DNA from: Octopus vulgaris
Lineage: Eukaryota
Assembly: GCA_951406725.2 (NCBI GenBank)
Contig: OX597822.1
Span: 25,482,001-25,546,000 of the forward strand
Direction of reading: 5' to 3'
DNA: 64,000 bases
The position numbers were made by a program, and so were the translations under genes. Positions 8,925 through 63,723 of the stretch are shown one piece after another. How positions within the stretch are numbered: position 1 is the first letter of the stretch; the number at the start of each line of letters is the position of its first letter. The notes beneath the pieces were generated by a model. It had not been told where the DNA came from, ran no database searches, and saw only the letters and a program-made list of their open reading frames with translations.

Positions 8925-9459
<535 letters not shown>

Positions 9460-10571: not shown

Positions 10572-10940
10572 TTTCACTTGTTTCAGTCATTTGACTGCGG
10601 CCATGCTGGAGCGCCGCCTTTAGTCGAGCAAATCGATCCCAGGACTTATTCTTTGGAAGCCTAGTACTTATGCTATCGGTTTTTTTGCCGAACCGCTAAG
10701 TTACGGGGACGTAAACACACCACCATTGGTTGTCAAGCGATGTTGGGGGACAAACACAGACACACAAACATATACACACATACATATATACATACATATA
10801 TACGACGGGCTTCTTTCAGTTTCCGTCTACCAAATCCACTCACAAGGCTTTGGTCGGCCCGAAGCTATAGTAGAAGACACTTGCCCAATGTGCCACGCAA
10901 TAGGAATGAACCCGGAACCATGTGGTTGTAAAGCGAGCAA
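10572..10940 (-). mobile_element. tRNA-derived SINE family B
   Basis: Reverse-complement match to 19085-19555, including the internal (TA/CA) tract. Confidence 0.8.
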
Positions 10941-11383
10941 CTTTATTTCATAAATTTGTCATATAGATAGTACAAAGAGCTTTGCCGGCTGGACAAACAC
11001 GTTAATGAATGAAAATGAATTATAATGAATAAATGAGAGACGAAACCCAACACTCGCCGATTGAATTTTTCTCGAAAACATATTTTCTTTTTTTTTTTTT
11101 AAATCAATATAAGGTTTCGAACCTTTTATAAGGAGGAGGCACTAAAACCTCTTACTTAACATATTTTCTTTTTTCTTTCTTGAAACACAAAATTGAGGTT
11201 ATAAACCACTACAAAATAGTCCAATAAGGTGAGGTTTCAAACTCTGTAACGAGGGTTTTTCACCTCTTACTCTTCGATATATCCATCGATATATTCATCA
11301 TTATCTTCAATGCCGCTTTAAAATTGAAGGAGAAGAGACAGGATATTAATGGTTAGAGGATACGTCAGTATGTTTATAAGCGT

Positions 11384-33479: not shown

Positions 33480-33997
33480 TCTTTATATATATAAACCTGA
33501 GAATGTGTGTCTGTTTGTCTGTGTGTTTCCCTAAAACTTGAGAACTACACAACCAATTTCATTCAAATTTTTACACATGTCTTACTTAGGGTCCATGAAA
33601 TTTCATGGGCAAAAAAAAATGTTCAACTTCTTGCCTAGGGCGAGCCCATAGCAATATCATATCTTCTCCACTATTTCAGTATTACGTGTTAAAAGTGAAA
33701 CAAAAACGTTTCTCTATTTTATGTCAGATACTTTCACTTTAACAATAAAAATAATAATAACAATTGAATTATATGTAGTAAGTAATAATTAAAATCAAAC
33801 TAAAGTAACATGGCAAAAGTAAAAATAGAAATTGGTATAAAATTGCATCAATGATTTGAACTTGAATAAGTGGTTTCACATGAACGGGAATAAATTAAAA
33901 ATAAAATTAGCGTGTAGAAATGGAATAGTCCAGATGGATAATAAAAAATTAAATTAAAGAAAAGACTATTGTCTATAAAGTATACAATGTAGAGAAA
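33480..33997 (+). mobile_element. Helitron-like non-autonomous element, 5' portion; the retroelement array follows directly
   Basis: A|TCTTTATATATATAAA start; similar to 9200-9360 and to the start of 58071. Confidence 0.5.
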
Positions 33998-35847: not shown

Positions 35848-35877
35848 GTCTATAAAGTATACAATGTAGAGAAAAAA

Positions 35878-37529: not shown

Positions 37530-39211
37530 CGTGGTTTTTTCGGCTCCTGAAAATTCGGTAAAAAAGAACAAAAAGCGTTGTTGTTGTTGTGGAAATTCTG
37601 AACGGCGTTGACGCGGTTTCGCGTTTCGCTCGTTCAGCGCGTTACACTTTTTCTGTTTTGGCGGCCGTTTTCGGTCTGTCAGACAGAAGGAAATGGACAA
37701 CCCCTACCTGATGGGAGATACGGCTGCAGTTTTTGAGTCTTTAACAGACTTGTCTACGTCTGAGGAGGAGCTAGAAATAGCAGTGAGGAAAATGGATCAG
37801 AAGCTGAGTTATACCTATGCCGGTGTAACCAAGAAGGCGGAAGAGAAAGGGGTCGACATGGCCAAGTTGCCAAGTTACCAGAAATACATGAAAAAGGAAA
37901 GCGGTGAGGTGGAACTATCACCGACACCCAGGAGAAAAGAATGGTATGATAAGAGGACCATTGTTTACAGGGTGTGCGCAAACGAAAGGAAGAGGGTAGA
38001 AGTTGTATCCATGGAATGGATAGAGGAAGCCCTGCGAAGAACTGAGGAGGAAATAAATTTTCTGACTCGAGGATCCAAGTACGGGACCGTAGTTGTGCAC
38101 TTTAAAAGTGAATCTGCAGCGAGGAAGATGGCAGCGAAGGCGGTGAAGTCGGAAAAGGTAACACTGTTACCTACGTATTTAAACAGGAGGATTACACGAA
38201 TAAGGGTGGAGGGAGTGCCACCAAACGTGGAGGCAGAATGGATTGTGGCAGCTGTGATCAGCGGCCACGAGGACGAAGTGGATATTCTCCATGCCTCGGT
38301 TAAGTCCGAAGGCTGGAGAGGCGTAACAGTGGAGCTGAACGTACAGGCAGAGACCGAGGTACTGGTGGACCTGACGGAAAGCATCAGACTGGGAGAAGTG
38401 ATCATGAGAGTGTGGGTGGAGGGCAGGGCTCCACGTTGTTACAAGTGTGGCCTGAGGGGTCACATAAGAGCCTTCTGCCCTCCCCCAGGGAAAGAAATGG
38501 ATTCCGAACCAGAGAGAGAGAAGCAGAAACCAGAGGAGAAGGAAACAGAGGAAGAGAATACACAGAAATGGAAGGAAGCTGGAAGTAAGAGGAAGAGAAG
38601 AATATGTGGAAAAAAAGAAAATAATATGGAACTCCAATCTACCCCAAAACCTCCCACACCCTCTGAGTCCCACCCTATCCATGCAGACATTGAACCCACC
38701 CGCTCCCCCCCAACAAGAAAACAAAAGAAAAAAAAGAATACACACACACAAGAGATTGAAATCGAACCCAGGCCGTACATTTGTACTATGACTGAACAGA
38801 AAGAAGTTAAAAGTCTAATGGAAGAGTATAAATGGTATGATGTTGGAGAGACTAGGTATGCTGTGATTGAAAAGAAGAACATAGGTGAGTTTATGGGGAG
38901 GTGTGAAAGGGAGAATTGGGAGGTGAAAGATATAAGAATGAGCGATGAATTCGTGGAAAATATGGATGAGTATTTCGGAGTAAGAATGGATATGGAATTT
39001 ATTCGTATTGACAAAGAACATTCAAGTGACTATGAAAAACAAAGGACAGGTAAGTGATGCTGACGGACGGGGCCGTTGGTATCGCTTTCATTTTATCATT
39101 TTTTTACGTTTAACAATTCATGTTCATAAAGTTTAATTATAATGTTCTGTGTCCCCATGTTTTGTGATGTCCGCCATTCTTCGTAGCCCCTTAGTGGGTA
39201 ATAAAGAAATA
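37530..39211 (+). mobile_element. ORF1-only retroelement, unit U3
   Basis: Bounded by CGTGGTTTTTTCGGCTC at 37530 and 39212; 3' GCCCCTTAGTGGGTAATAAAGAAATA. Confidence 0.85.
37693..39057 (+). CDS. ORF1 (gag-like) protein, 454 aa, intact
   Basis: CYKCGLRGHIRAFC knuckle; alignable with U2 but clearly diverged. Confidence 0.88.
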   Translation: MDNPYLMGDTAAVFESLTDLSTSEEELEIAVRKMDQKLSYTYAGVTKKAEEKGVDMAKLPSYQKYMKKESGEVELSPTPRRKEWYDKRTIVYRVCANERKRVEVVSMEWIEEALRRTEEEINFLTRGSKYGTVVVHFKSESAARKMAAKAVKSEKVTLLPTYLNRRITRIRVEGVPPNVEAEWIVAAVISGHEDEVDILHASVKSEGWRGVTVELNVQAETEVLVDLTESIRLGEVIMRVWVEGRAPRCYKCGLRGHIRAFCPPPGKEMDSEPEREKQKPEEKETEEENTQKWKEAGSKRKRRICGKKENNMELQSTPKPPTPSESHPIHADIEPTRSPPTRKQKKKKNTHTQEIEIEPRPYICTMTEQKEVKSLMEEYKWYDVGETRYAVIEKKNIGEFMGRCERENWEVKDIRMSDEFVENMDEYFGVRMDMEFIRIDKEHSSDYEKQRTGK

Positions 39212-40904
39212 CGTGGTTTTTTCGGCTCTGTGTTTTTTGCTCTCTGTGGAATTCGGTAAAAAGAAAAAAGAACAAAAAGTGAATGGTTGTTGTTGTAAAA
39301 TTTTGAACGTAGTTGATGCGGTTTCGCGTCTCACTGGTTCTGCGCGTTACACTTTTTCGGTTCGGGAGGCCGTTTTTCGGCCGGAGGCGACTATGAGCCG
39401 CCTCCATCAAGCGGAGGAGATGGAAGGGAGAATTTACTCTGAAATTTCGACGGAAGTATCGACATCTGAGGAGGAGTTGGCGGTGAAAGGGATGGAAGGC
39501 ACCTACGCAGGTGTAACGAAGAAGTCAACGGAAAGAGAGATAGACCTGGCTAAGTTGGCGGGCCTCCAGGAGTTTGTGAAGGAGGACGAGAACGGTGAAG
39601 TCGAGCTGCTGCATCCAGTAGGGCGCGGAGACTGGTTCCATCGTAGAACCATTAAATATAAAGTATTTATGAATGGAGGTAGAAAGATGGAAGTAATCAA
39701 CATGGAAGCAATTGAAGAGGCTCTCAAGCAGACAGGAGAGGAAATTGTGTACATGACAAAAGGATTACAATACGGAACGATAACGGTGCAATTTAAAAGC
39801 GAAAAAGCAGCCAGGAATGTAGCAGCCAAGGTGGTGAGTACAGAAAAGATTTACTTGTTACCCTCGTATCTGAATAGGCGGACAACTAGAATTAGGGTGG
39901 AGGGAATACCTCCACACCTAGAGGGCGAATTAATAACGGCTGCGGTTATAAAAGGAAATGAAGATAAAGTGGACATCCTCCACGCCATTATGAAGTATGA
40001 AGGCGTGAGAGGTGCCACACTAGTTATGAACGTTCAAGCGGAGGCGGATGTTATAGAGAGGATTACGGACAGCATAAAAACTGGAAATATTATTATGAGA
40101 GTGTGGGTGGAGGGTAGGGCGCCCAGGTGCTACAAGTGTGGCCAAAGGGGTCACATAAGAGCCTACTGCCCTCCCCCACCAAAGGAAAAAGAAAAGGAAA
40201 GCGTTGAGGAAGCCTCAGGAGAGGAAGAAAATAAACAGAAACAAACAGAGAAGGAAACGACAGAAGAAGAGGAGATGCAACAAGAGTGGAAAGAAGGGGG
40301 AACAAAGAGAAAAAGAAAGAAAAAGAAAAACTGTGCGAAACCCCAACCCACCCCAACACCACCCGCACCCTCTGAATCCCACCCTTCCCCTACAGACAGT
40401 GAACCCACCCACTCCCCTCCAACAAGAAAACAAAAGAAAAATACAGACAGACAAGAGTTTGAAAACGAACCCAGGCCGAACATTTATATTGTGACTGAAC
40501 AGAAAGAGGTTGAAAGGGTAATGGAGGAGTATGAATAGTATGAAATGGATGGGACCAGATATGCAGTGCTGGAAAAGAAGAATATAGATGAGTTTATGTT
40601 GAGGTGTGAAAGGGAGAATTGGGAGGTGAAAGATATAAGAATGAGCGATGAATTCGTGGAATATATGGAGGACAGTTTCGGAGTAAGAATGGATATGGAT
40701 GGTCTTCGTATTGGGAATGAACATTCAGGTGACAGTGAAAACAAAAGGTCAGGTAAGTGGTGCTAGCGGATGGGGCCGTTGGCACCGCTTTCATATATCA
40801 TTTTCAAAATTCATTTTACTCATATCTATGTAATTGTGATGTTCTATGTCCCCAATGTTTGTAACGTCCCCTCTATGTAGCCCCTAGTGGGTAATAAAGA
40901 ATCA
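39212..40904 (+). mobile_element. ORF1-only retroelement, unit U4
   Basis: Same 5' motif; 3' GCCCCTAGTGGGTAATAAAGAATCA. Confidence 0.85.
39213..40766 (+). pseudogene. ORF1 protein with one premature stop (TAG 40536-40538; TGG in U5)
   Basis: ORFs 39213-40538 and 40545-40766 are in frame and nearly identical to U5. Confidence 0.8.
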
Positions 40905-40969
40905 GGATAATAAAAAATTAAATTAAAGAAAAGACTATTGTCTATAAAGTATACAATGTAGAGAAAAAA

Positions 40970-42648
40970 GGTCGTGGTTTTTTCGGCTCCTGAAATTCGG
41001 TAAAAAAGAACAAAAAGCGTTGTTGTTGTTGTGGAAATTCTGAACGGCGTTGACGCGGTTTCGCGTTTCGCTCGTTCAGCGCGTTACACTTTTTCTGTTT
41101 TGGCGGCCGTTTTTCGGTCGGAGGCGACTATGAGCCGCCTCCATCAAGCGGAGGAGATGGAAGGGAGAATTTACTCTGAAATTTCGACGGAAGTATCGAC
41201 ATCTGAGGAGGAGTTGGCGGTGAAAAAGATGGAAGGCACCTACGCAGGTGTAACGAAGAAGTCAACGGAAAGAGAGATAGACCTGGCTAAGTTGGCGGGC
41301 CTCCAGGAGTTTGTGAAGGAGGACGAGAACGGTGAAGTCGAGCTGCTGCATCCAGTAGGGCGCGGAGACTGGTTCCATCGTAGAACCATTAAATATAAAG
41401 TATTTATGAATGGAGGTAGAAAGATGGAAGTAATCAACATGGAAGCAATTGAAGAGGCTCTCAAGCAGACAGGAGAGGAAATTGTGTACATGACAAAAGG
41501 ATTACAATACGGAACGATAACGGTGCAATTTAAAAGCGAAAAAGCAGCCAGGAATGTAGCAGCCAAGGTGGTGAGTACAGAAAAGATTTACTTGTTACCC
41601 TCGTATCTGAATAGGCGGACAACCAGAATTAGGGTGGAGGGAATACCTCCACACCTAGAGGGCGAATTAATAACGGCTGCGGTTATAAAAGGAAATGAAG
41701 ATAAAGTGGACATCCTCCACGCCATTATGAAGTATGAAGGCGTGAGAGGTGCCACACTAGTTATGAACATTCAAGCGGAGGCGGATGTTATAGAGAGGAT
41801 TACGGACAGCATAAAAACTGGAAATATTATTATGAGAGTGTGGGTGGAGGGTAGGGCGCCCAGGTGCTACAAGTGTGGCCAAAGGGGTCACATAAGAGCC
41901 TACTGCCCTCCCCCACCAAAGGAAAAAGAAAAGGAAAGCGTTGAGGAAGCCTCAGGAGAGGAAGAAAATAAACAGAAACAAACAGAGAAGGAAACGACAG
42001 AAGAAGAGGAGATGCAACAAGAGTGGAAAGAAGGGGGAACAAAGAGAAAAAGAAGGAAAAAGAAAAACTGTGCGAAGCCCCAACCCACCCCGACACCACC
42101 CATACCCTTGGAGTCCCATCCTTCCCCTGCAGACAGTGAACCCACCCGCTCCCCTCCAACAAGAAAACAAAAGAAAAATAATAATACAGACAGACAAGAG
42201 TTTGAAAACGAACCCAGGCCGAACATTTATATTGTGACGGAACAGAAAGAGGTTGAAAGGGTAATGGAGGAGTATGAATGGTATGAAATGGATGGGACCA
42301 GATATGCAGTGCTGGAAAAGAAGAATATAGATGAGTTTGTGTTGAGGTGTGAAAGGGAGAATTGGGAGGTGAAAGATACAAGAATGAGCGATGAATTCGT
42401 GGAATATATGGAGGACAGTTTCGGAGTAAGAATGGATATGGATGGTCTTCGTATTGGGAATGAACATTCAGGTGACAGTGAAATCAAAAGGACAGGTAAG
42501 TGATGCTGGCGGAGGGGGCCGTTAGCATCGCTTTCATATTATCATTTTTCATTTTCATTTGCTCATAAATTTAATCATATTGTTCTATGTCCCCCATGTT
42601 TTGTTATGTCCGCCATTCTTCGTAGCCCCTGGTGGGTAATAAAGAAAT
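40970..42648 (+). mobile_element. ORF1-only retroelement, unit U5
   Basis: Preceded by a copy (40905-40966) of the array's upstream flank 33936-33997; 3' GCCCCTGGTGGGTAATAAAGAAAT. Confidence 0.85.
41031..42503 (+). CDS. ORF1 (gag-like) protein with CCHC knuckle, intact
   Basis: Identical to U2 up to ...ESHPSPA, then a U3/U4-type C-terminus. Confidence 0.85.
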   Translation: MEILNGVDAVSRFARSARYTFSVLAAVFRSEATMSRLHQAEEMEGRIYSEISTEVSTSEEELAVKKMEGTYAGVTKKSTEREIDLAKLAGLQEFVKEDENGEVELLHPVGRGDWFHRRTIKYKVFMNGGRKMEVINMEAIEEALKQTGEEIVYMTKGLQYGTITVQFKSEKAARNVAAKVVSTEKIYLLPSYLNRRTTRIRVEGIPPHLEGELITAAVIKGNEDKVDILHAIMKYEGVRGATLVMNIQAEADVIERITDSIKTGNIIMRVWVEGRAPRCYKCGQRGHIRAYCPPPPKEKEKESVEEASGEEENKQKQTEKETTEEEEMQQEWKEGGTKRKRRKKKNCAKPQPTPTPPIPLESHPSPADSEPTRSPPTRKQKKNNNTDRQEFENEPRPNIYIVTEQKEVERVMEEYEWYEMDGTRYAVLEKKNIDEFVLRCERENWEVKDTRMSDEFVEYMEDSFGVRMDMDGLRIGNEHSGDSEIKRTGK

Positions 42649-42878
42649 AACATGGAGGAAAGCAATTCATTGCGTTATTAGTAAGTTGATATATATTTTT
42701 GCTCTCATACTACTTATCTCTGTTATTATATACTGTTGGTCTACCTTTTTTGTCCATTGTTGTCTAACGGACGAAGTCAACCTTCGCGCGAAGACTTCGC
42801 GTTGGTGTTCCCCCCTCAGTGGGGGAAAACTACAATCAATTTAGATTACCAAAGGCTTGTTAAAGCCATTTGTTCAAA

Positions 42879-44256
42879 ATGGAGTCCCCCATCACTTATT
42901 CGCCCGTGACGAGCGAGGATGAATACCCGGCGTTGTCGCCAAGTAAAAAAGAGGCGTTGTCGCCAAGAAAAAAAGAGGCGCTGTCGCCGAAGAAAAAGAG
43001 GCGGCGTCGCCCAAGAAAATGGTAAAACCAGTACCAGCATCAACTCCAGCAAAAAAATTCGCTGAAGTGGCTGGGAAGAAAATTAAAAAAATTAACGTGG
43101 ACAACCTGGGAAAACATGCGGACTGTGTGTCAAAAGAGGGCACGGAAGTAACCGTGGCTTCAAACGCCCAAATACAGGAGGATATTTCGAATAGGAGAAT
43201 AATCTATAAGACATTCAGTATAACAAACAGAGCAATCCAAAAAATAGAGGAGAAAAAGATTGAAAACTGCTTAAAGCCAATAATGGATAAAATTACGTAT
43301 ATCAATCGAGGGAAGAAATACGGCACAGTGGAGGTGAGATTCACGTCAGAGGAGGTAGCGAAGAAGCTATCCATGGAACCCATAAAAGCGGAGGATATTG
43401 TTCTCCTACCCCTGTATAAAGGCAAGAGAACTTCCAAAATCACTATGAACAACATCCCGCCAGAAGCGGATGCCGAAGTCCTAGTAGCAGCAGTTATGGT
43501 AGGCCTGGAGGAAAAAATAAACATCCTCCAGGCCACCGTAGAAGAAGAAGAATTCTGGAAAGGGCAAAAGATAATAATAGCTATACAAGCAGAAGTACAA
43601 ACCCTGGAAGAGATCCCAGAGACTCTAAGGATAAGCGAAGATGAAAGAGTCACAGTCTTCGTAGAGGGCAGAAAGCCGAGGTGCTTCGGCTGCGGTAAGA
43701 AGGGGCATGTAAGGGCGGAATGCCAGCCCCAACCCAAACCGCAGGAAGCACCTAAGCCAAAAGGAAAAGAAGACAATGTGTCACCAGAAGCAGCGTCAGA
43801 CGGCCCAGAAGGGAAGACTGAAGGTGTGGAGGTGATGGTAACAGCAGAACCAGCGGCGGAGAAAAAAAGAGCGAGGAAAAGATAAATGAGGAGGGGTGGG
43901 CAAAAATTATCGGAAAAAAAAAAAGAAAAACGGAAACCACCCCTCCCAGAGTAATTTTAAAAAAGAAAAAAGAGTCAATGAACTCATATATGGCCGTAAA
44001 AGCATCAAATAGCAGACTCGGAAACGTGTTGGCAGCCATGGCCAATGTGAAGAGAGTAGAGAAAAAAAATGACTTTCTAATTTACAAAATAGACCGGAAG
44101 GATTACGGGCGGATAAAGTCAGAATTCTTCCATGACGTAGGCCCACTTAGGTTGGATGTAACATCTCCACATATATTCGAGGGCCTACGTCAGACTCCCC
44201 CACGAGGCCCAGAAAAAGAGAAGGAAGAAGAAGAAAAAACCGAACCACTGATATAA
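42879..44256 (+). CDS. LINE ORF1 (RRM-like + CCHC), split by two 1-nt frameshifts in A-runs (~42995, ~43865)
   Basis: ATG at 42879 (MESPITYSP...), ORF 43019-43885 with CFGCGKKGHVRAEC, continuing into 43978-44256. Confidence 0.8.
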
Positions 44257-44265
44257 AGGTAAGTA

Positions 44266-47200
44266 ATGGATTACATTTATGTTGGTTGTTTAAATGTGCG
44301 CGGCCTGGGAGCAGGCTGGAAGCAAGGTCGCTTCCTGCATGATATCAGGTCGCGTAATTTAGATGTTATTGTTGCTACAGAAACCCGGCTAGAGGGGCCA
44401 AGAGGTCTACTCCCGCTGTTTGACGGCTACGAGAGTTTTTTCTCTCCTGGCAGTCCTACAGGCGGGAGTGGGGTGTTGGTCCTATTAAAAAGAAACCGGG
44501 TTTCTGAGAAAAAGTTAATTTTTGCAGATCCAGAAGGTAGGCTTGTCGTCATGGATTTGACGTTCAGTAATGGTAAAGTTATCAGACTGGTTGCAATTTA
44601 CGCACCCAACCATACAGGGCAAAGTGATTATTTTCGTGAAATAGAAAACTTTCTTGGTACTTCGCATTCATTAGTGGTGCTAGGAGACTTTAACACAATT
44701 TGCAAAGCGGATGTAGATTATGTTGGCTCGTGTCCAGATAGAAAAGGCAACAGTGGCTTCATGGAACTGCTAAGCCGCTTTGAGCTAGCAGATCCTTATA
44801 GGCTGGAATTTCCGAACGCTCCATTGTGGACATGGTCAAACAGCGACGGATCTTCCAGGTCGTATCTAGATAGAATACTAATTAGAAAAGTAGACAGTAA
44901 AATAGCTAAGTGTCCACAGTTTTACCCGATCAGCTACAGTGATCATAAAATGGTCACTTGTAAGCTTGACATAGATAAGGTTAAAAATAGAGGATCCGGT
45001 TACTGGAAACTTAATACGTCCCTTTTGGCGATTAAGGAGTACAAAGACCGGATTAGGAATATAATTCAGAGGGCACTATCTGGTACCATCATTAATAACA
45101 AATGGTGGTACGCCCTCAAACGAGCCATCAAGTTTGAGTCTATTAGATATAGCATAGGAGTAGTGGCTAGAGAGGCTAGAAGGGAAACTACTCTAGTTAA
45201 GGAATTAGAGGAAGCCATGAAAACTGGCTCTGCGGCTCAGGTGGCGGCCAAGAGACTGGTGTTAAACCAGCACCTCGAGGCCAAACACATGGGCTGCATT
45301 GTCAGGGCTAGAATCCGTCATATGGGATGTGAAGGAATCAACGCCGTGAGATGGGCCCGAGTGGTGGAAGCTCAGCATGGTAACGATGCCACGATTCGAT
45401 CTTTGACGAACCAACAAGGTGAGTTGATAAACGAACCCGAGGAGATGTGTGAGGCCTTTCAGGAGCACTTCGCTCAGCTTTTCGGTGAGTGCGGCGGACT
45501 GGATAGGAGGAGGGCCTTTACGGACCTACTCGACGGTCTGCCGCGCTTATCGGGGCGAGATGCGGAGGGCTGTGAAGGGCCAATCACGCCTGAGGAGGTG
45601 GTTGAGGCAATGGCAGACTGCGGCGCGGGCAAGGCGCCGGGTTTGGATGGTCTACCCTATGAGTTATATAAGAGTATGCCAGACTTGTTCGGGCACCTAC
45701 TGGCGGAGGTCTACGCGAACTGGCAGCAGAACGGGCTTATACCCAGATCTGTGCGCCGGGGAGTAGTGACTCTCGTCAGAAAGGACCCGAGCAAGGGGGA
45801 GTGCATTGATAATTTCAGGCCCATCACTCTGCTAAACACAGAGTTGAAGATTTTGGCCAAAGTGTTATCGAAAAGATTGGCGCGTGTCGCGGATGGTCTG
45901 ATCGGAGGGGCACAGACATGTGCCGTTCCGGGCAGATCCATTCAGGATAATCTCCATCTAATGCGGTACACTATAGAGGGGTTTAATAGTGATTCTGGCA
46001 AGGGTGGGGCACTGGTCCATTTAGACCAATCTAAAGCTTTTGATAGGGTCGACCATCGTTACCTGGTATCTGCCCTGGCACAGTTCGGGCTGAGCCTTGG
46101 ATTCCTCAGGTGGATTATCGAAATTTATGATAACATCGACTCGGTAGTTCGGGTGAACGGCTTCTTGTCGAAGCCGTTCAAAATCAAACGCTCGGTTCGT
46201 CAAGGGTGTCCGCTCTCCCCGCTTTTGTACGTGATGGCTCTTGAGCCATTACTGCGAAAACTGAGCGGCATCCCGAGACAGCCAGGTAATGGAAAATCAG
46301 TGTCAGCGTACGCGGATGACATCACCATCATCGTAACCGAAATGGACCACCTATGTAAAGTAGGCAAGGCCATAGAGGTGTACGAGACGGTGACAGGAGC
46401 AAAAGTTAATCGCGAAAAGTCAGTCGGCTTGCAACTCGGCACCTGGAGAGGCAAGTCGATGCCTCCTGACAGCGTCGTGGGACGTTGGACGGAGGGTCCG
46501 ATTAAACTGCTAGGGGTCTGGTTCGGTCCAGACCTCCAAATAGAGAAGAATTGGGGCGAGGTAACGAGCAAGGTGGCTGCAGTAGCCAAGACCTGGTCTT
46601 GGCGGTGGCTATCCCTGAAAGGGAGGGCGGAGGTGGCCAATGTGTTTATCGCATCGGTTATCACCTACCGCCTTTCCGTCGTTCCTTGCCCTGATTCGTG
46701 GTTGATCAAGTTGGAAAGACAGCTCTTCTACTTCTTGTGGAAGGGCGGGAAACCACTTGTGAAACGCTCTACTTGCTGTCAACAACCGTTAAAGGGTGGG
46801 CTAGGGATGCCTTGGCTGATGATGCGCAGACATGCGCTGAGGTTAAGACATCTGTGGCTCTACCTGGATGGTGAACGGGTGTGGTCTTCGCTAGCAAAAC
46901 TGATGTTTCCCAAGTTCACTAGTTTCGGTGGATGGGAAACCTGGCTGAATCGTAGATCGAAACTTGGTACTTGGTACACGGAGTGTCGCAAGGCTCTCCT
47001 GCTATTCCGTCGCTCGGGCAACGCCTGCGGTGGGGGTTCCACCACTTTCTTCTATAGAGGGTTGGTAGAGGCGGAATGTGAAGATACCTTGGGGGAAACC
47101 CTAGGTCTCGACGATAATCAGCTGGCCAGTCTGTTCCGACGTACGTTCGAGCCAAGGACACTGGACAACTTCCAGAAGTCTCTGGCATGGCAATGCTACA

Positions 47201-47661
47201 GAGGAGCTCTACCTGTTCGGGATAAACTCGCAAGGCACGGTGGCCAAGACAGTCCGATATGTCCAAGATGCGGGCGGGATAGGGAAACCGTCCCGCACGC
47301 GATTGTTCATTGTCCGGACGTGTCTGAGGTGTGGGTTTATGCCGAACACCTGTTGTCAGGTACACGAAGAGTACAGCTGTCGACTGAGTCGATTACAAAA
47401 ATTGACCCACCGGATTTCCTCGTGAATGAAGGTAAGTTTCGTTTTCTCGTTGTAGTAGCAATCGCGAAAGAGGTGATATGGAAGACGAGAATGAAAGGTT
47501 TACAGTCAGGCAAGTTCATCTCCGGCCCTGGTTTGATGAATTATTTCATCTTTCACCTGAAAAGGAAGATAGGGCTGGAGAGAATATGCCTGACTAGGAG
47601 AGCGTATGAAGAACGATGGAAGGATGTAGCACGGAAGTTGCGAATGAAAGTTACAACATAA
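44266..47661 (+). CDS. LINE ORF2: APE endonuclease + reverse transcriptase + C-terminal Cys/His (zf-RVT-like) domain, 1131 aa, intact
   Basis: APE motifs LNVRGL, ETR, GDFN, LDRI, SDH; GYWKLN; RT motifs PGLDG, FRPITLLN, DQSKAFDRV, RQGCPLSP, YADD; CPRC-x8-H-x4-C. Confidence 0.97.
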   Translation: MDYIYVGCLNVRGLGAGWKQGRFLHDIRSRNLDVIVATETRLEGPRGLLPLFDGYESFFSPGSPTGGSGVLVLLKRNRVSEKKLIFADPEGRLVVMDLTFSNGKVIRLVAIYAPNHTGQSDYFREIENFLGTSHSLVVLGDFNTICKADVDYVGSCPDRKGNSGFMELLSRFELADPYRLEFPNAPLWTWSNSDGSSRSYLDRILIRKVDSKIAKCPQFYPISYSDHKMVTCKLDIDKVKNRGSGYWKLNTSLLAIKEYKDRIRNIIQRALSGTIINNKWWYALKRAIKFESIRYSIGVVAREARRETTLVKELEEAMKTGSAAQVAAKRLVLNQHLEAKHMGCIVRARIRHMGCEGINAVRWARVVEAQHGNDATIRSLTNQQGELINEPEEMCEAFQEHFAQLFGECGGLDRRRAFTDLLDGLPRLSGRDAEGCEGPITPEEVVEAMADCGAGKAPGLDGLPYELYKSMPDLFGHLLAEVYANWQQNGLIPRSVRRGVVTLVRKDPSKGECIDNFRPITLLNTELKILAKVLSKRLARVADGLIGGAQTCAVPGRSIQDNLHLMRYTIEGFNSDSGKGGALVHLDQSKAFDRVDHRYLVSALAQFGLSLGFLRWIIEIYDNIDSVVRVNGFLSKPFKIKRSVRQGCPLSPLLYVMALEPLLRKLSGIPRQPGNGKSVSAYADDITIIVTEMDHLCKVGKAIEVYETVTGAKVNREKSVGLQLGTWRGKSMPPDSVVGRWTEGPIKLLGVWFGPDLQIEKNWGEVTSKVAAVAKTWSWRWLSLKGRAEVANVFIASVITYRLSVVPCPDSWLIKLERQLFYFLWKGGKPLVKRSTCCQQPLKGGLGMPWLMMRRHALRLRHLWLYLDGERVWSSLAKLMFPKFTSFGGWETWLNRRSKLGTWYTECRKALLLFRRSGNACGGGSTTFFYRGLVEAECEDTLGETLGLDDNQLASLFRRTFEPRTLDNFQKSLAWQCYRGALPVRDKLARHGGQDSPICPRCGRDRETVPHAIVHCPDVSEVWVYAEHLLSGTRRVQLSTESITKIDPPDFLVNEGKFRFLVVVAIAKEVIWKTRMKGLQSGKFISGPGLMNYFIFHLKRKIGLERICLTRRAYEERWKDVARKLRMKVTT

Positions 47662-47906
47662 ATGTAATACCAAGTGCAACCAAAAGTATCAGTGGGGAGG
47701 CGGGGCTCGTGGGGTCCGAGCTAAACCCGCACCCACTCCACCCGTAATGTCTTCCGGTCTGTCCTATCACTCGATTTTTGTCCATTTATTGTTATTCATG
47801 AAAATTTTTAAACCCGATTTATTGTAAAAACCCATTCGTTTGTCTGACCCCATCATCAGATTGTATTGTCCCATCTGTGTTCGCCCCTTGTGGGTAATAA
47901 TAAAAC

Positions 47907-48200
47907 AACATGGAGGAAAGCACCTTCAAAAAGTATCTTTGTGCGACTATGAAAGGTATCTAATCAGAGGCGGTAAATTCGCCACAATAGAAGCAAGGTT
48001 CGAGTCAACGGAGCGTGCAAGGGAGTACTCGACTCGAACCTTGCAAAGTGGAAATATTTTATTTTTACCTTTATGTCTGGGATGTAGGTCGTACCGGAAA
48101 AAAAATTTTAATGCCCCCCCCCCCCCGAAGTAGAGGTAGGCTGGATTGTAGTCACACTTCTATACAAGAGGGAGGACAAGATACAATTGATCGAAATTAT
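47907..48200 (+). pseudogene. Degraded internal fragment of a related ORF1
   Basis: YLIRGGKFATIEARFESTERAREYSTRTLQSGNILFLPLCLG aligns to YINRGKKYGTVEVRFTSEEVAKKLSMEPIKAEDIVLLPLYKG. Confidence 0.7.
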
Positions 48201-48361
48201 AAGAGACGGGCTAACAATTCCAGTCTGTTATATATTTTGAGTATTGTTATCACTAGCGATATCAAGATATAACTTTGTATTTTGTATTTTATGTGTAGAT
48301 GTATATATATATAGATGCACATGTAATATGTACACATATATATATACACATATATACATGC

Positions 48362-48401
48362 ACTAGCACTATGACCCGGCAACGACGGGTCTTTAATGCT
48401 A

Positions 48402-48403
<2 letters not shown>
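48362..48403. mobile_element. Helitron-like 3' terminal hairpin ending in CTAG|T
   Basis: ACTAGCA..GACCCG-GCAACGA-CGGGTC..TGCTAGT. Confidence 0.5.
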
Positions 48404-48434
<31 letters not shown>

Positions 48435-50179: not shown

Positions 50180-53100
50180 ACCGGGGACGTTTAAAATGTG
50201 AGGACGATAAAACAGTGCTCCGAAATCTATCCACAAACATCGAAAAAAAAGACATCGTATGGAGCCAAAAATTTACTAACAAAGAATCGGACTATATCCG
50301 AGTAAGTAAAACTCATTGAAATTTATTACTATTTTCGAAACGAAATGATGTATTTTAACTCGATATCATCTCCACCTCTAACACAACACATGTAAACATG
50401 CGTGGAACATTACGATCTATCATCACCAGATCATCCCCGATCCAAACACCATGTACAAAAAAACTACGAAGAAATTAAATAACACCGATATTATTCAACC
50501 CAAGAATAACAATCTGGAAGTACGTACTTTAAACTTACAACCGAATATGTACGAAAAACTACACGTATAAAACAATGTGACAACAGAAATGAACAGACCG
50601 GTACCCTACGAAAATGACGACCGTCAAAATAATGGGCTGGACGTTGTTCCTCATGTCTCGCAAATAAAACCCAAAAGACATAAATGGACACGTGAGGAAT
50701 ACATTTCTACCCTACACGCTTACTTCACAGCAGTGCTCTACCCAGAAAATGAAAACACAACAACACATACATATAAAATATGGAAGGAAAATAACATAAA
50801 TATAGACTTGGATACAGCAATGAACCCTAATAAACTAGCTAACGCACAAAGATACATTCTCAACGCAAAAAACATATCAGAAATAGAAATAGAACATCTA
50901 AAAGAAAAAATACATCAGGAAAATGTAGATAGAAGCCACACAACAATGCCCAATAATATAAACATTGAAACAGTAAAACACCAAGACAAACGTAACATTC
51001 CCAACAAACACGATGTAAACAAAAAAACAACAAACCCAGACCGTAAGGATGCATAATAATACACGACAAACAGCAAGCCAAAAAACGACAAACAAACATA
51101 CAAATGAGAAAGAAAGCGATACAAATCTAAAACCTGGAAACAACGAAGGGGAGCCTAATGATTATGATAATATAAAAAGTAGAATAATCAAAGAACTGAA
51201 AACCACAAATCTCAAAATGGACCACCGACCATACCTCCCAAAAATCAAAATAGACGAAACAGCAACACCAATATTAAAAACAGCATAAACCTAGCCGTCA
51301 CGGGACTAATAGCCACTGAAACAAAAAGCGATATCACTGAGCTAAATGACTTAGTATACGCAGTAGCCAGTGCAGCCACAAAAGAAGCTGGTTACTCACT
51401 CAAACCCATCCAAACAGGAGTACCACCACCCAAACAAACCCTATGGATAAATAACACCCAAAACAAAATACAAAAAATGAGAAAAGATCTGTCGATTCTT
51501 AATGAAATCAGTAGAAAATCAACGCTACCGAGCAACAAAAAGAAAACAAAAATACTCCGCAAATATAACATCACAGAAAAAGATTTACCTGAGATAAAAG
51601 AAAAGCTAAAGCAAGATATCCTTGCCAAAGCACAAAGGATCCGCCGGTACGAGAAACGCCAGCGCTTCTTTGAACAAAACAAAAAGTTCAACTCCAACCA
51701 CAAAAAGTTCTACCAAGAACTTGGCAAAAATAAAATAGAAATCACTGCAGCACCAATGGCAGAAGAAGTGGAAGAATTCTGGAGAGAAATATGGTCGGCG
51801 AACGAACAACCAAAAAAACAAGGAGTATTAAAACAACAAACTCAGCATCTGAGCAACTTTGGACCCCCATAACAACTGAAGAGGTCACCCAGGCACTGCA
51901 AAGACTAAGCAACTGGAAAGCACCAGGGCATGACAAGATCCCCAGCTTCTGGTTGAAATATCTAACAGGAATGCACAAAAAGCTGGCTAAAAACTTTAAC
52001 AACATACTAGTAGAGCCAGAGACAATGCCTGAATGGCTCACGAAGGGAAAAACCATCTTAATTCCCAAATCAAATGAGACAGCAAAACCAGAAAACTACA
52101 GATGAATAACCTGTCTCCCTACAATGTACAAGGCATTTACTGCAGTGATATCGCAAAGGTTGAACAAGCACCTGGACGAAAACAACCTGTTTCCAGAAGA
52201 GCAGAAAGGATGCCGCAAAGGCTCATATGGCTGTAAAGATCAACTAATGATTAATAAAGCCATAACTGAAGACAGCGACAGAAATCAGAAAGGCCTCAGT
52301 ATGGCCTGGATCGACTACAAAAAGGCGTTTGATAGTATCCCCCACACATGGATATTCGAAACACTGGCCATTAACAAAGTAGCACCAACAATTATAAAAT
52401 TCATAGGACACTCTATGAATAAATGGCAAACAGTGCTACAGCTCCAAACAAAAAAGGGACTAATGAAAACCAAAGCCATCCCCATTAGAAGAGGAATATT
52501 CCCGGGAAACACGCTCTCTCCACTCCTTTTCTGCTTGGCACTGTCACCTCTATCTGATATGCTAAACAGAACTGGATGCGAATATAAATGTAAAGGCAAA
52601 ACGATCAGCCACCTTTTATATATGGATGACCTAAAACTATACGCTGCAAATGACAAACAGCTGGAAACACTATTAAAGACAGTTCATGGATTTACCAAAG
52701 AAATAGATATGAAATTTGGATTAGAAAAATGCGCCAAAGTAACCATGAAAAGAGGAAAACTAGTTAAGAGTAGCAACATCACACTAGATAAAACCAATGA
52801 AATAAAAGAATTAGACCAAAGCCAAACTTACAAATACTTAGGAATCCATGAACTAGATAAGACACAACACACACAAATGAAAGAGAAAATAAAAAAAGAA
52901 TATTATAGATGAGTTAGATCAATACTAAAAACAGAGCTCAATGCTAAAAACAAGATAATAGGTATTAACACTTTAGCTGTCCCAGTTATAAGTTACAGCT
53001 ACAATATCCTTAACTGGACACTAAATGAACTGACCAAAGTAGATAGGAAAACAAGAAAAATAATGACAGGATCTAGGATGCATCACCCAAAATCTGACAT

Positions 53101-54220
53101 AGAAAGACTATATATACAACGTATAGAAGGTGGTAGAGGCCTTATACAGCTGGAAAACTACTATAAAATAACCACCATAGGACTGCAAAAATATCTACTT
53201 CAGAAGGAAGGAAACTGATACAAATAGCGGCAAAACACGAGCAAAACAAAAAACTGTTCTCAGTATTTAAGGAAGCTGACAAGTACAAACAAGAAATCAT
53301 ACCACCTAATTAATATGAAGAAGAAGAAGATGAAGAAACAACAAAAGCTATGAAACAAATGAAATCCAAACTAAAACTAGAACAGCAAAGAACCATGATA
53401 AAACGATGGTAAGAAAAGCCCCTTCATGGTAAATACTGGACTAAACTAAATGCAAAAGAAATAGACAAAGAAAAATCCCAGCAATTGCATACAAGACCAA
53501 AGCTTCCCCACCAGAAATTACCAAAAACATGTAATGAAAAGAAATATAACAAGTAACTGCAGAATATGTGGAGATGGACTAGAAACAATAAATCATATTA
53601 TCTCTGGCTGCCCAGTTCTGGCTAAGAAGGAATATATTCACAGACATGACAGAGTTGGAAGCTACATACACTGGAAGCTATGCCAACATTATGGAATAAC
53701 AACAGAAAAAAGATGGTATAGGCACACACCAGAAAAGGTCACAGAAAATGAGAAAGCAACCATACTCTGGGATATGCCGATACACACAGATAGAGAAATT
53801 AAGGCCAACAGACCAGATATAGTTGTCAGAGATCATGAAGAAAAAAATGCTTTCTAATTGATGTATCAATACCGGCAGATGACAACGTTTCTCTAAAAGA
53901 AATGGAGAAACTTTCAAAATACAAAGACCTGGAAATAGAAGTAACCAGAATGTGGGATCTAAAAACAGAAACAATTCCTATCATTGTAGGTGCATTAGGC
54001 ATGATACAAAAATATTCAGACAAATACATAACAAAAACACCATGACTTACAAACACACATAACATACAGAAAATTGCACTAATAGGCACTGCACACGTCC
54101 TGCACAGAACACTTTCCATACAATAACCATCAGAGCATCACAACAAATCACAGCACATACCCAAGACACACAGAGCTGCGTTCGATAGTGAAGTGAAAGC
54201 ACGCTATAAAAATAAAACTA

Positions 54221-54223
<3 letters not shown>
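50180..54223 (+). mobile_element. Decayed RLE-type non-LTR retrotransposon, R4/Dong clade
   Basis: Fragmented ORF: WKAPGHD, ENYR, EEQKGC, WIDYKKAFDS, YMDD, CRIC-x7-H-x4-C, RHD, RPDIV; 3' end runs into (AAT)n. Confidence 0.9.
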
Positions 54224-54252
<29 letters not shown>

Positions 54253-55399: not shown

Positions 55400-55650
55400 T
55401 GGGCTGTTACTAGCAGGGCTATTATTTGGACAGTGTCTAGTGTTGAGGATTCACGTATAGCCTCTACATTTTTATTTATATGATTTTTTATCATGCCCAA
55501 TGTTCTAATTATTATTGGTATTGTTTTTACTTTCATGCTCCACATTTTGAATACTTCAATTTCGTGGTCTTGTACTTTGACAATTTCTCCACTTCTTTTT
55601 TCACAATATTTTGATCAGAAGGGACTGAAATGTCTATCAGTAAGCAGGTA
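55400..55650 (-). mobile_element. Diverged R4/Dong-like RLE fragment
   Basis: Minus strand reads LLIDISVP...KYKxxEIEVFKMWSMKVKTIPIIIRTLGMIK, homologous to 53860-54010. Confidence 0.6.
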
Positions 55651-55654
55651 AGCT

Positions 55655-56297
55655 GTCACGTGTGGGATGGATCCGTCTATCAGCCGAGCCTGTAGTGACG
55701 ACCGCACCGCCGCCCTCTTTCAATCGGCCAGGCCAGGCAGTTTTCCTTTGTCTGATGGCTGTGGTGAAAGCGGTTGTTTGGTGGTCAAGGCTGAAAGGCA
55801 TGAGGGACAGATACATTCCTCTTTGGTAGAGCTTTCATTGACTTCCTCAAGTTTCTCTTGAAAAGGAAATTGAGAGTGGAGAGGGAAATGTTGTCCTCAA
55901 GTGAGTTTATTGAAAAGTGGGCAAAAGTTGCGAAAATTTTAAGAGTGGTTAGTACATCTTTAAATGTAGAACTATGAGTCGGAGAGAAGGAATTGAAGAG
56001 GGCACTTGCTCTTGGGGTTTCAGGGAAAATTCGGACTGTGGGGTTCCTCGATTATCAGTAGAGGCCTTCCTGTATCAGGAGGGCCACATCTCTATCATCT
56101 TCACTGCCACTTTTTTTAACCTTTGTATACTATACATATGTCCATTCTCTTTCAATGTATACCGTGTATAATTAATTTATTTATTTCTATCATTTTATTA
56201 TATCTTTTTCTGTCATTTCATTATATGTAAATCCCCATACTTTATGTTTATCTTTGTATTGACCCCTTCATTCTTCGCCTTGTAGCAAATAAAAGAG
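55655..56297 (+). mobile_element. 5'-truncated older Tx1/L1-type LINE (ORF2 C-terminus + 3' UTR)
   Basis: ...AVVKAVVWWSRLKG...KRKLRVEREMLSSSEFIEKWAKVAKILRV matches ORF2 AIAKEVIWKTRMKG...KRKIGLERICLTRRAYEERWKDVARKLRM; degenerate tail. Confidence 0.75.
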
Positions 56298-58456: not shown

Positions 58457-58836
58457 TCAATAATATAATAAAAACGTGAATATTGAGATTTAAAAAATGT
58501 AGAAAATATAGTTTTTCATATCTATTTTTCTCATTTTTTTTATTTATCCGTTTTATTTTACGTAATACACACACACACAGTTACATGTATGCCTGTTCTT
58601 TCATAAATGCATAATTCGTTGAAATATACTTTTACAGACATATATGTTTATATAGAAATGAATAAAAATATACAAAAGTTGCCTGCTGAAATAAGGATAC
58701 GAAAACTGTCCTTGATCCTGAGTTCGGAGAACTAAGCTACGCTCCTGGACTGTAAAAACTGAACATAGTTTATTTCATTCAAATATTTTTTCTATATAAC
58801 CGTAAGAGTGGCTGTGTGGTAAGTAGCTTGCTTACC

Positions 58837-60972
58837 TCATTGTGCATGTGCGAGCCAGAGTTATGTTTGACACTGAAGCAGTAAGACGCGCTTTTGAAGC
58901 CGTCTTAAATTGAAGATCTATGAAACTCAGCTGTAAGGTAAGACTTTCGCCTAGTGAGGGCCATGTCGCAAATTATTTTTACAAACAAGAATTCCTCACT
59001 AGACTCTAGTCTGCCTCAGGCTGAGTGAAAATATTATTCACTTAATTGTGAAAATTATTGGTTTGGTGGGCGTATCCTGCCAAAATTTTTGCTTGAAAAT
59101 AGTATCGTTCCTGTTAAGGAGTACCTAGAAGAAAAATGGAATAATTTTTTAACTGTTTTACAATTGTGTTAAATTTTGGTTTGGAGTACCAAGTGGCCTT
59201 TGCTGTGTATTGAACTGTTGCTCTCTCTTCGTCTATCTTTGATTTAAAAAAAAAACTATTGCACTGTTAATTTTTTTCTCTCTCCTTCCTTTTGGACTTT
59301 TGTCTTCTTCCTTCTTTTTCTTTATTTTATATTTTAACAACTGTATTTTTGGACTCTTTAAAAAAACATGGCAAATAATAATGAAAAGTTAATGGAGTGG
59401 GAAATTATACCTCCCCAAAAGATGGTTAAAAGAACTTGAAAGTAAGACGGTGGTTTTGAGGACCTACTATAGGACCCTCGATGCCATTGCCGTTTCCAGT
59501 AAATATAATCGAAAGAGAGCTGGCAGAATTTAAGCCAGCGATTAAGTTTATCACTCGTGGGGTCAAATACACAACCGTGTGGTTGCTGTTTGACTCCCCA
59601 GAAGTGGCCTTTGAATTTGCAAGTCAGCCCCTGGCGGGTAATGAAATTTTGTTTCTTTTCACTTATTGTGGGAAGAGTTTGACGAGGGCTTGGTTTTGCG
59701 GCTTGTCACCCGGAGTTGAGCCCCAGTAGATAGGAGATACTATCTGCCGGAGTCTGGGTAGCAGTAGCATCAAGCTCTTCAGCGTAAATATTCTGCCTGC
59801 GGCTGACTGGGACGGGTCAAAACTGTTTTGACCCTATGGACCCAGTCAGCTGAAAGTCTGGTATTTCCAGACTTTTTGAGAATGGCCGGGCCTAAGTATC
59901 CGGTGATTCTTGAGGGACGCCCCCCCCCACCAGTGTTATCGGCGCTTGAAGCCTGGCCATATAAAAAAGAACTGTTCTCAAGGGCAAAGCAAAGTCCCGG
60001 AGCGGTTCACGGAGACCTCTGTATAGGAGGGAATGAAGGCGGCCGAAGAGACAGAGGACTCCTCAAAGAAGAGCCGCAAAAGGAAGAAGGAGAGCAATAA
60101 TGGGTGCTCACCGAAGGATCCTGGGGATGAGGGAGGTGAGGCAAATCTCCAGGTCATGGAGAAGACGCACCCTCCCCCAGTCGAGAAGAAAAAAAAAGAG
60201 GAAGAGTAGAACCGGGACATTGCCGGCAGTCGGAGACATGACGCCGGAGTGTCACGGAGCCTCGTCGGTTGTACCACCGGAGGGTGGGGGGGACACCATT
60301 GGCGGGAATTGTGCCGCCAACAGTAAAATTGACCGCCCCGAACCCGATGGACGAGAAACTGTTGGTCTTCTTTTATAGAGGCGGAGAGGTGGAAAAGATA
60401 GTGAAAGAACACTACGAGGGAATACCTTCACACAGGATCCTGAATGGCCTCCGCAGATAGCTGTGGAGGTCATAACGTTGCGCCTGTTTATAATGCTGGA
60501 CGGACTAAAAGAGGAGTATCGCTAGTGGCCGAGTAACGCCAACTCGGACTACGCCGTGATTTTAAACGAAGCATGGGTTATGGCGAAGTACACGGACACA
60601 AGCGATTATGAGGTGGAAAATTGACAAGCGGTTGAAAAGCCTCAGTGTTATAAAGTGTAAGAGACCCAGCGCCTCATTTGTAAATGGACTAGTGTTGATT
60701 GAATATTGAATATTTTTTGCATGTTAATATTTGTTAATATTTGGAGTATTAAGTCCCAAAACTGTAAAAACTGTTGTGAGAGGTTCAATACCTCGCTTCT
60801 TTTAGTCGGTTTAAAAAAAAAAAGAACAATGTTGTAGAGAAGGAGAAAATCGGCGGGCGTTTTTGCCCTCTCTCATCAATATCATCCTTATTTCATCATT
60901 CACCTCATCAATGTATATGTCCAGCCCGCAGCTACTCTTTGTAATAACTTTATGGCAAATTTTTATGAAATA
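58837..60972 (+). mobile_element. Older ORF1-only retroelement inserted into a family-B SINE head
   Basis: 16-bp TSD AAGTAGCTTGCTTACC (58821-58836 / 60973-60988); SINE halves at 58806-58836 and 60973-61050; decayed ORF1 (FITRGVKYTTVWLLF; ILEGRPP..CYRRLKPGHIKKNC); no RT. Confidence 0.8.
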
Positions 60973-61102
60973 AAGTAGCTTGCTTACCAACCACATGGTT
61001 CCGGGTTCAGTCCCACTGCATGGCACCTTGGGCAAGTGTCTTCTACTATAGTCATACTCGGTCACGAATGGACATCCATCATTACACACATAAACACGCA
61101 CA

Positions 61103-61156
<54 letters not shown>

Positions 61157-61848
61157 CACACACACACACATAGAGGAACCCACATACACACGTACACAGA
61201 CGCGCAGATAAATATAGATTGGTAGTTATGGAGAGAAATTTATAAATACAAGCATATATATATATATATATATATGAACATACACACATATTCATACATA
61301 TGCTCACACGCACGCATATGATAAAACGAAGAGGATAATTTTCTACAGGTGAAAGTATTTGGTTGAGCTTCTCTAATTCTCATTTATGATTATTCGATAA
61401 TATATCATCCTACCTACTTTTATAGAATTCCTGTATCTATATTTACTTGCTGTAGAGGCAAAATTGACATTTTAGACAACGGAGATAATTGATTTCAGAA
61501 GGTAAATATTAATATATAAGAATCATAAATAAGAACGGCTTACGTTAGCATTGCTGAATTATATCTGAAATCAATCTGTTTACAGAACCAAGTAAGTGGT
61601 GCTACTAATGAATTAATCTGACTGAGAAGACTCCAGAAGAACTTGTTTATTTAGTGATACTCAGTTTAAGTGGAATAATGTTGCTGATTCGGCACAATAA
61701 GTCAAGAATTATTGCACGCGAATTGATCTTTTACCTTCGCGATAACCTTCTCTCTTGAAAGCTAAATGACACACACTCGCACAAGCAATGCTCCCCACAC
61801 ACACTCACACGTACACACACACATATGTACATATATATGAACATACGT

Positions 61849-62158
61849 GTGAAGGCGCATGGCTCAGTGGTTAGAGCGTCGAGCTTACGATCGTGAGGTT
61901 GTGAGTTCGAATCCCGGACCGGGTTGCGTGTTGTGTTCTTGAGCCAGACACTTTATTTCACGTTGCTCAGCTGTAGAAATGAGTTGCGACAACACAGGTG
62001 CCAAACTGTATCGGCCCTTGCTTTTCCCTTGGATAAAACTGGTGGCTTGGAGAGCGGAGGCTGGTATGCATGGGCGACTGCTGGTCTTCCATAAACAACC
62101 TTGCTCAGACATGTGCCTCGGAGGGTAACTTTCTAGGTGCAATCCCACGGTCAGTCAT
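61849..62158 (+). mobile_element. tRNA-derived SINE (third type)
   Basis: A box TGGCTCAGTGG, B box GTTCGAATCC, followed by a non-tRNA body. Confidence 0.75.
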
Positions 62159-62356
62159 ATATTATATGCACACACATATGTCTGGTGTGTTTACGTCCCT
62201 GTAACTTAGCAGTTCGGCAAAACAGACCGATAGAATAAGTACTAGACTTACAAAGAATAAGTCCTGGTGTCGATTTCTCGACTAAAGCCGGTGGTCCAGC
62301 ATGACCACAGTCAAAATGACTGAAACGAGTAAAAGAGTAAAAATAGAGTAAAGAGA

Positions 62357-63138: not shown

Positions 63139-63723
<585 letters not shown>

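Follow-up and report, generated by a model that had tools for sequence, protein, structure and literature searches.

The 64,000-nucleotide stretch of Octopus vulgaris DNA analysed here (hereafter the window) contains a 2,136-bp insert, at positions 58837–60972, which splits the tRNA-like head of a SINE. In the reading that I favour, and consider probable, this is a single copy of a Tx1-type retrotransposon that is non-autonomous and has ORF1 only, inserted in trans by a partner element at a fixed site of the SINE head. The Tx1 label, for the insert as for a neighbouring LINE, is a presumptive one, and the insert carries no reverse transcriptase (RT) by which to place it. The boundaries, the target-site duplication (TSD), the ORF1 homology, the lack of ORF2 similarity and a repeated junction are observed, and support a delimited retrotransposed unit that possesses an ORF1 and no RT. 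That it represents a helper-dependent retrotransposon family aimed at SINE repeats is likely. The locus is organized as follows:

58799–58820 (+): 5′ portion of the family-B host SINE (tRNA type), carrying an A-box-like motif at 58809–58819; aligned to the copies at 19.1, 33.2 and 9.5 kb, box assigned by eye
58821–58836 (+): left TSD, 16 bp; exact match to the right copy
58837–59367 (+): 5′ UTR, 531 bp, with a TCATTG start (presumably initiator-like) and a pyrimidine tract preceding the ATG; from sequence and geometry
59368–60203 (+): decayed ORF1, with two predicted RRM-like domains, a degenerate CCHC knuckle and a charged linker, 4 frameshifts and 2 stops; from the alignment to XP_029652367
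60204–60624 (+): broken coding-like stretch, with a TGA end at 60622–60624; likely the C-terminal part of ORF1, judged from length only
60625–60972 (+): 3′ UTR, 348 bp, ending in GAAATA; last ∼165 nt common to the 11-kb copy
60973–60988 (+): right TSD, 16 bp; exact match to the left copy
60989–61051 (+): host SINE continuation, with a B-box-like motif at 61004–61014 (by eye); SINE similarity ends at 61051

Exactly two copies of the 16-mer AAGTAGCTTGCTTACC are present in the 64-kb window, one at 58821–58836 and the other at 60973–60988, and these exact repeats bracket the 2,136 bp, bearing out the preliminary description of a family-B SINE head split by an insert of about 2.1 kb with a 16-bp TSD. 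The TCATTG start and GAAATA end reported there were both seen again, as was the start of the neighbouring LINE, ATTCATTG. The motif AATAAA, at 60969–60974, is completed by the first two bases (AA) of the right TSD, and the duplication could therefore formally measure 14–16 bp. No poly(A) run is present at the 3′ end of the insert, and no long terminal direct or inverted repeat was found among the repeats listed. The hallmarks of retrotransposition present are thus the 16-bp TSD, the A-rich 3′ end (AATAAA) and the absence of terminal repeats among those listed, and both ends look complete.

When the insert and one TSD copy are removed, a single SINE head is restored, which differs from the intact copies at 19.1, 33.2 and 9.5 kb at 5, 5 and ∼13 of 94 positions, respectively. 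These uninterrupted copies serve as empty-site controls. The family-B SINE is present at five dispersed loci in the window, with A and B boxes in its tRNA-like head (by eye), and the insert lies between the A-box-like and B-box-like motifs of its host (also by eye). This host starts near 58799–58801, and stops at 61051 without a 3′ body. ARAGORN found no tRNA gene in the window, indicating that the host is a SINE and not a tRNA gene. A search of Rfam returned no tRNA match for the split SINE head, and its 10 sub-threshold matches are not relevant. The host may be one of the octopus SINEs OR1/OR2, a provisional name. PMC4758252 cites OR2 as a CORE SINE of octopus, and SINEs are reported to make up ∼11.6% of the O. 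vulgaris genome (PMC13282606). A SINE tail at 62180–62322 was considered as the lost end of the host and dropped, with 1.1 kb of unrelated sequence in between and the SINE middle absent. At 61835–62120 (+) lies a member of yet another, third SINE family of tRNA type, whose A and B boxes are clear.

A search with the main frame of the insert, in which stops were replaced by X, gave one match among 286 candidates, the Octopus sinensis LOC115225585 (E 1e-62), an uncharacterized RefSeq model of 281 aa with three protein accessions of one sequence (XP_029652367–9). In a scan of 1.84 billion representatives, this protein was the sole one of four matches below 1e-10; the remainder consisted of a weak sea-anemone knuckle protein and two proteins set aside as unrelated-looking. 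A profile search returned the O. sinensis protein, one unnamed 129-aa match and nothing else. In a frameshift-aware alignment, running from the ATG at 59368 to 60203 and covering the whole 281-aa protein, 168 of 275 residues are identical (61%). The two share the same start and the same domain order, but the frame of LOC115225585 is open over its 281 codons, whereas that of the insert is broken by four frameshifts and two stops. XP_029652367 in turn matches the ORF1 of the window LINE (E 6e-23), as well as the ORF1s of a neighbouring array, and a profile built from the window ORF1s matches the insert (E 3e-10). It follows that the insert carries a LINE ORF1 homolog, in a decayed state, as had been proposed from the letters alone.

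The fold and domain analysis was performed on the 61%-identical relative and not on the broken ORF1 of the insert. A predicted model from XP_029652367 and four window ORF1s has a mean pLDDT of 71. Foldseek matched it to tandem-RRM proteins (best E 6e-5, low TM scores), and the comparison to single RRMs with VIA-align gave a best Z of 8.7 (rmsd 2.1, 69 residues), while the Atlas neighbours of XP_029652367 are CCHC and ZCCHC3-like clusters (0.90–0.92). The insert ORF1 is therefore predicted to be of the RRM-RRM-knuckle type found in LINE ORF1s, with a CCHC knuckle that is degenerate both in the insert and in XP_029652367. Pfam recognized no family in any of three insert pieces, nor in the stretch 60204–60624, and only zf-CCHC in three of three related window ORF1s.

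The TGA at 60622 is likely the end of ORF1, because the resulting ATG-to-stop length of 1,257 nt resembles that of the array ORF1s (1,329–1,374 nt). A proposed homology of 60338–60621 to the C-termini of the array ORF1s was rejected: the score of 50, against a shuffle maximum of 46, was suggestive only, and the direct test failed (lowest p 0.052 of 6; profile score under many shuffles). The decay of the ORF1 fits a neutral divergence of 4–6%, under assumed rates, which is inside the confidence range of the host SINE. The youth of the host SINE and the decay of the ORF1 may seem at odds, but the discrepancy is not significant, two stops and four frameshifts being in line with such a divergence. 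Three of the four frameshifts are at or near homopolymer runs (by eye), and assembly error may therefore add to their number.

Elsewhere in the window, five ORF1-only units, which represent three or more types of ORF1, are arranged head-to-tail at ∼33998–42648 (+), directly upstream of a LINE, and each of the units has a GCCCC/GGGTAATAAA-type tail. The LINE is a full L1-group element within 42649–47922 (+), with its body at 42665–47906, a TSD equal in length to that of the insert (16 bp), a frameshifted ORF1 and an open ORF2 of 1,131 aa. This ORF2 (44266–47661) includes endonuclease, RT and zf-RVT domains, and L1 ORF2p is its best match among solved structures (E 5e-65). The ORF1 core of the insert is 22–26% identical to those of the array units and the LINE, and 69% to that of the O. 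sinensis protein. In a six-row tree, the insert ORF1 and the O. sinensis protein group together with 100/100 support. The preliminary description had suggested a sister lineage, and these values agree with one, at some distance. The UTRs of the insert do not match those of the window LINE (p 0.25 and 0.58), which is therefore probably not its partner. The similarity of the insert 5′ UTR to other 5′ UTRs in the window is not significant, and the window holds no partner LINE with an insert-type tail; a partner may lie elsewhere. The only features that the tail of the insert has in common with its neighbours are a TTGTA-like motif, AATAAA and the GAAATA at the end. A terminal GAAAT(A) is common to the insert, to units u2 and u4 of the array, and to three Tx1-tailed SINEs located at the heads of another SINE family (family A).

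The array and LINE adjoin an older ORF1 relic (33910–33997 and 47907–48160, +), detected on the right with E 2e-8 and E 7e-5 and weakly on the left (p ∼0.012). They appear to lie inside this relic, so that ORF1 sequence like its own may be what their lineage targets. Seemingly, the relic is itself within a Helitron-like element, at ∼33480–48410 (by eye).

No ORF2 was found in the insert when the intact 1,131-aa ORF2 of the neighbouring LINE was used as query (best E 4.9), and the same query does find other LINE relics in the window (E 7e-17 and 2e-9). I also compared the 3′ part of the insert, and the 11-kb region described below, to pieces of ORF2 by 24 shuffle tests. None of these remained significant once the number of tests was taken into account: the lowest p was 0.01, against 0.001 for a positive control. 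The match at p 0.01, to the ORF2 C-terminus, is a gapped, low-identity alignment, and was dropped. No ORF2 similarity is present in 60204–60624. By protein search and shuffle tests alike, this copy is thus without RT, as originally noted. In a uniform-breakpoint model with an ORF2 of 3.4 kb, only 1.1–2.4% of deletions of at least 1 kb leave such a clean ORF2 loss, which favours an ORF1-only RNA without proving it. A search for longer ORF1-ORF2 fusion relatives gave none among 1,831 candidates, which is weak evidence. It is likely, though unproven with a single full copy in 64 kb, that the whole family and not just the 58.8-kb copy has no ORF2. The earlier claim that ORF1-only elements move as units is consequently upheld in part: the insert is a delimited unit with a TSD, but that its RNA had no ORF2 at the time of insertion is unproven from one full copy.

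The element had been called solitary, which is incorrect, as a related 3′ fragment is found at 11 kb in the same window:

10944–11100 (−): 3′ tail of a second, diverged member, with 121 of 164 columns identical (74%); weak similarity may reach ∼11270
10567–10943 (−): 3′ part of a family-B SINE, complete to its tail, whose first base is the one with which the right TSD at 58.8 kb begins

The last ∼165 nt of the insert align to this tail with a score of 133, where the best of 500 shuffles reached 35. Upstream of these, the similarity of the 11-kb fragment is weak (p ∼0.014; p ∼0.06 for the ORF1 end). The tail joins its family-B SINE at a base identical to that of the 58.8-kb junction. A search of the window with the 16-mer, in which as many as 4 mismatches were allowed, gave 11 matches, of which six are in the five family-B loci, one is in a deleted related head, and four are chance-like. 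Two of the five family-B loci carry an insert-type tail, at the same base, and three are intact; conversely, both copies of the tail are at this base (2/2, though n = 2). With five sites in 128,000 strand positions, the chance that a second, random insertion falls at such a site is ∼4e-5. The presence of the element at one site in two of five window copies points to sequence-specific targeting of the family-B SINE head (n = 2), and a non-random target is to this extent supported.

Compared to the majority of four copies, the 58.8-kb host differs at 1 of 79 positions, and the 11-kb host at 8 of 79 (10%). This difference in host divergence suggests that the two insertions are separate events of different age. 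No 5′ SINE half or TSD was found upstream of the 11-kb tail, and this locus may for that reason have arisen by the copying of a chimera and not by direct insertion. The 11-kb fragment supports targeting but says nothing firm on ORF2: no junction of ORF1 and tail can be read from it, and an autonomous LINE, once truncated, could just as well have left such a tail. Conserved hairpins in the 3′ tail were considered and rejected, since none of 12 folded segments clearly beats its shuffles (best z −1.67), and the consensus fold of the two tails is weak (−2.5 kcal/mol) and was dropped as evidence. The 11-kb tail region includes, at 11130–11270 (−), two similar blocks of ∼50 nt, one of which ends in a perfect B-box-like GGTTCGAAACC. 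A weaker version of this B-box-like block is located in the insert, at 60782–60792.

A further set of junctions is found in family-A SINEs. An internal 13-mer of the family-A head has nine matches, three of which (420 +, 27750 − and 49103 +) are preceded by a SINE with a LINE-type tail. All three SINEs join the head at one internal position, which lies between its A and B boxes; their downstream hosts differ, and they are a parallel case of fixed insertion between these boxes. The preliminary description had viewed the insert as lying again between A and B boxes. This fits the three Tx1-tailed SINEs at the family-A site, but not the array and LINE, which abut the ORF1 relic and not a tRNA head.

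Several other histories could produce such an insert. An autonomous SINE-targeting LINE may have been inserted at full length and have lost its ORF2 by a later deletion, to which I would assign a small, but real, chance. The ORF1 has decayed, the 3′ body of the host SINE past 61051 is gone as well, and 60204–60810 offers no firm homolog with which to exclude a deletion joint; on the other hand, neither edge retains an ORF2 remnant, clean removal is infrequent among the modelled deletions, and the length from ATG to presumed stop resembles that of the array ORF1s. The insert could instead be a one-off ORF2-less product of an autonomous LINE, arising from a spliced RNA or an internal jump of the RT, with no ORF1-only family behind it. 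This accounts equally well for the intact ends, the TSD and the clean loss of ORF2, and integrated spliced L1 copies have been described (PMC5860796). However, ORF1-only units of several lineages are present in the window, making heritable families the simpler prior, and I regard a one-off product as rather improbable.

The targeting could also be illusory, if a chance ancestral insertion had generated a chimera of tail and SINE, of which read-through retrotransposition, or else a duplication, later placed a copy at 11 kb. The 11-kb locus does lack a 5′ SINE half and a TSD, SINEs are abundant in the octopus genome at the proportion given above (PMC13282606), and the difference between the two loci in tail and SINE divergence (29/136 against 9/79) is not significant (Fisher p 0.09). 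Nonetheless, the 58.8-kb host is near the consensus while the 11-kb host is 10% diverged, the tails differ by 21–26%, the SINE body at 11 kb is absent from the 58.8-kb host, and the three family-A junctions are analogous, fixed, and have different downstream hosts, all of which makes this history distinctly unlikely. The insert might, finally, be the processed retrocopy of a host gene that was domesticated from an ORF1, LOC115225585 being an example. This is suggested by the nature of the closest relative, a RefSeq gene model (three accessions of one sequence), and by the ZCCHC3-like domains among the Atlas neighbours, but is the least credible of these histories, and indeed very improbable: there is no poly(A) run, the related tail at 11 kb ends at the same target base, the identity to the O. 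sinensis protein is only 61%, and the knuckle of that protein is degenerate too, as in a mobile-element copy.

Returning to a partner-mobilized, ORF1-only element, its mode of insertion can be outlined from established LINE biology. Transcription by Pol II would start at the TCATTG end, with the RNA ending at AATAAA. An intact master copy would supply an RNA-binding ORF1p, with its RRM-RRM-knuckle organization, that packages the RNA and joins the ORF2p of the partner. The AP-type endonuclease of the latter would nick the bottom strand just past the A box; the terminal A's of the RNA may pair with the target, and reverse transcription would be primed there. A top-strand cut 16 nt downstream, just past the presumed anticodon position, would generate the TSD. 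With 2.1 kb between its A and B boxes, that SINE copy would be silenced for Pol III, and the ORF1 would have decayed after insertion. The SINE head would constitute a harmless and very abundant landing site. That ORF1-only families exist in this genome is supported by the five ORF1-only units with LINE-type tails in the same window. More tentatively, and with less than even confidence, several Tx1-type LINE lineages of the octopus might each use their own site between the A and B boxes of the dominant tRNA-SINE heads, with ORF1-only satellites following them. This is based on family B at the insert and on family A at the three other junctions. If true, each insertion would disable a Pol III SINE promoter, one parasite using and at the same time curbing another, and the lineages would offer a new, programmable-looking endonuclease specificity.

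ORF1-only non-autonomous LINEs are known, and include HAL1 (L1), HeT-A (Jockey) and Ag-Sponge (CR1) (PMC5786205, PMC5753468), and ∼40% of the Drosophila telomeric families are reported as ORF1-only (PMC13534243). The insert resembles the former three in its organization (5′ UTR, ORF1 and 3′ UTR, without ORF2), and in a presumed mobilization in trans where ORF1p joins the proteins of a partner. In contrast to these, its ORF1 is of the RRM and CCHC type, from a Tx1-like lineage that is absent from this list; it is inserted at a fixed position of a SINE head, and not in AT-rich DNA or at telomere ends; and it is known from one full copy. Unlike the strict mammalian HAL1, it has no Transposase_22 (type II) ORF1p, as it matches no Pfam family and its relative folds as RRMs. 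It is therefore not a HAL1 in the strict sense, but by analogy may work like HAL1 or HeT-A with a Tx1-style site specificity.

Elements of the Tx1 clade target specific repeats, as in the case of Tx1L in the piggyBac element Tx1D, Keno in U2 snRNA, and Kibi and Koshi in microsatellites. Tx1-Mar, with SINEU, is found in Mariner-N4_AMi, such that Tx1 elements carry passengers to the same sites, and the Tx1-mobilised SINEU-3 has a 16-nt TSD; a target preference was defined there as more than 20% of copies in one repeat (all PMC4494074). An ORF1 with RRM and CCHC has been described as consistent with the Tx1 clade (PMC5203782), and 80 L1-Tx1 consensus families are reported for O. vulgaris (PMC13282606). 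The insert is similar in its sequence-specific, multicopy-repeat target, in a TSD of 16 nt as for SINEU-3, and in the use of a shared target by non-autonomous passengers; it differs in its choice of a tRNA-derived SINE head as target and in that, as a passenger, it encodes an ORF1, and it has no RT with which to be placed. Real tRNA genes are targeted by Dada DNA transposons and by some NeSL/LIN retrotransposons (PMC8869645, PMC4640811), which similarly insert near the A box or anticodon of a tRNA-type sequence, but do so with a DDE transposase or a restriction-like endonuclease; the window contains no tRNA gene. I found neither a Tx1-type ORF1-only family nor a retrotransposon targeting tRNA-SINE heads in the literature searched, which left most subscription papers and Repbase outside, and a prior annotation is possible.

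If the family is confirmed, the Tx1 lineage will join the few LINE clades from which ORF1-only derivatives have been described, and tRNA-SINE heads the known targets of site-specific retrotransposons. At ∼11.6% of the O. vulgaris genome, the SINE target would be nearly unlimited, and competing elements would be silenced by the insertions. It would also represent a testable case of element-on-element ecology, and the endonuclease of the partner would be a new sequence-specific enzyme. The basic mechanism of retrotransposition is unchanged by this finding. For annotation, it is a warning that some "uncharacterized" octopus genes, LOC115225585 for example, are likely LINE ORF1s.

The window contains other retroelement remains. 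At 55630–56296 (+) is the 3′ remnant of another L1-group ORF2 with its 3′ UTR, which ends at a (TTA)n microsatellite and possibly belongs to a microsatellite-targeting family. A decayed RT-bearing LINE of another clade, with a (TAA)n end, is located at 50540–54230 (+), and a copy of its 3′ fragment at 63296–63661 (−). A further RT relic is present at ∼25300–26000. Two long, near-perfect inverted repeats are also found, at 14346–15531 (551 bp, 98%) and 8927–9358 (154 bp, 100%).
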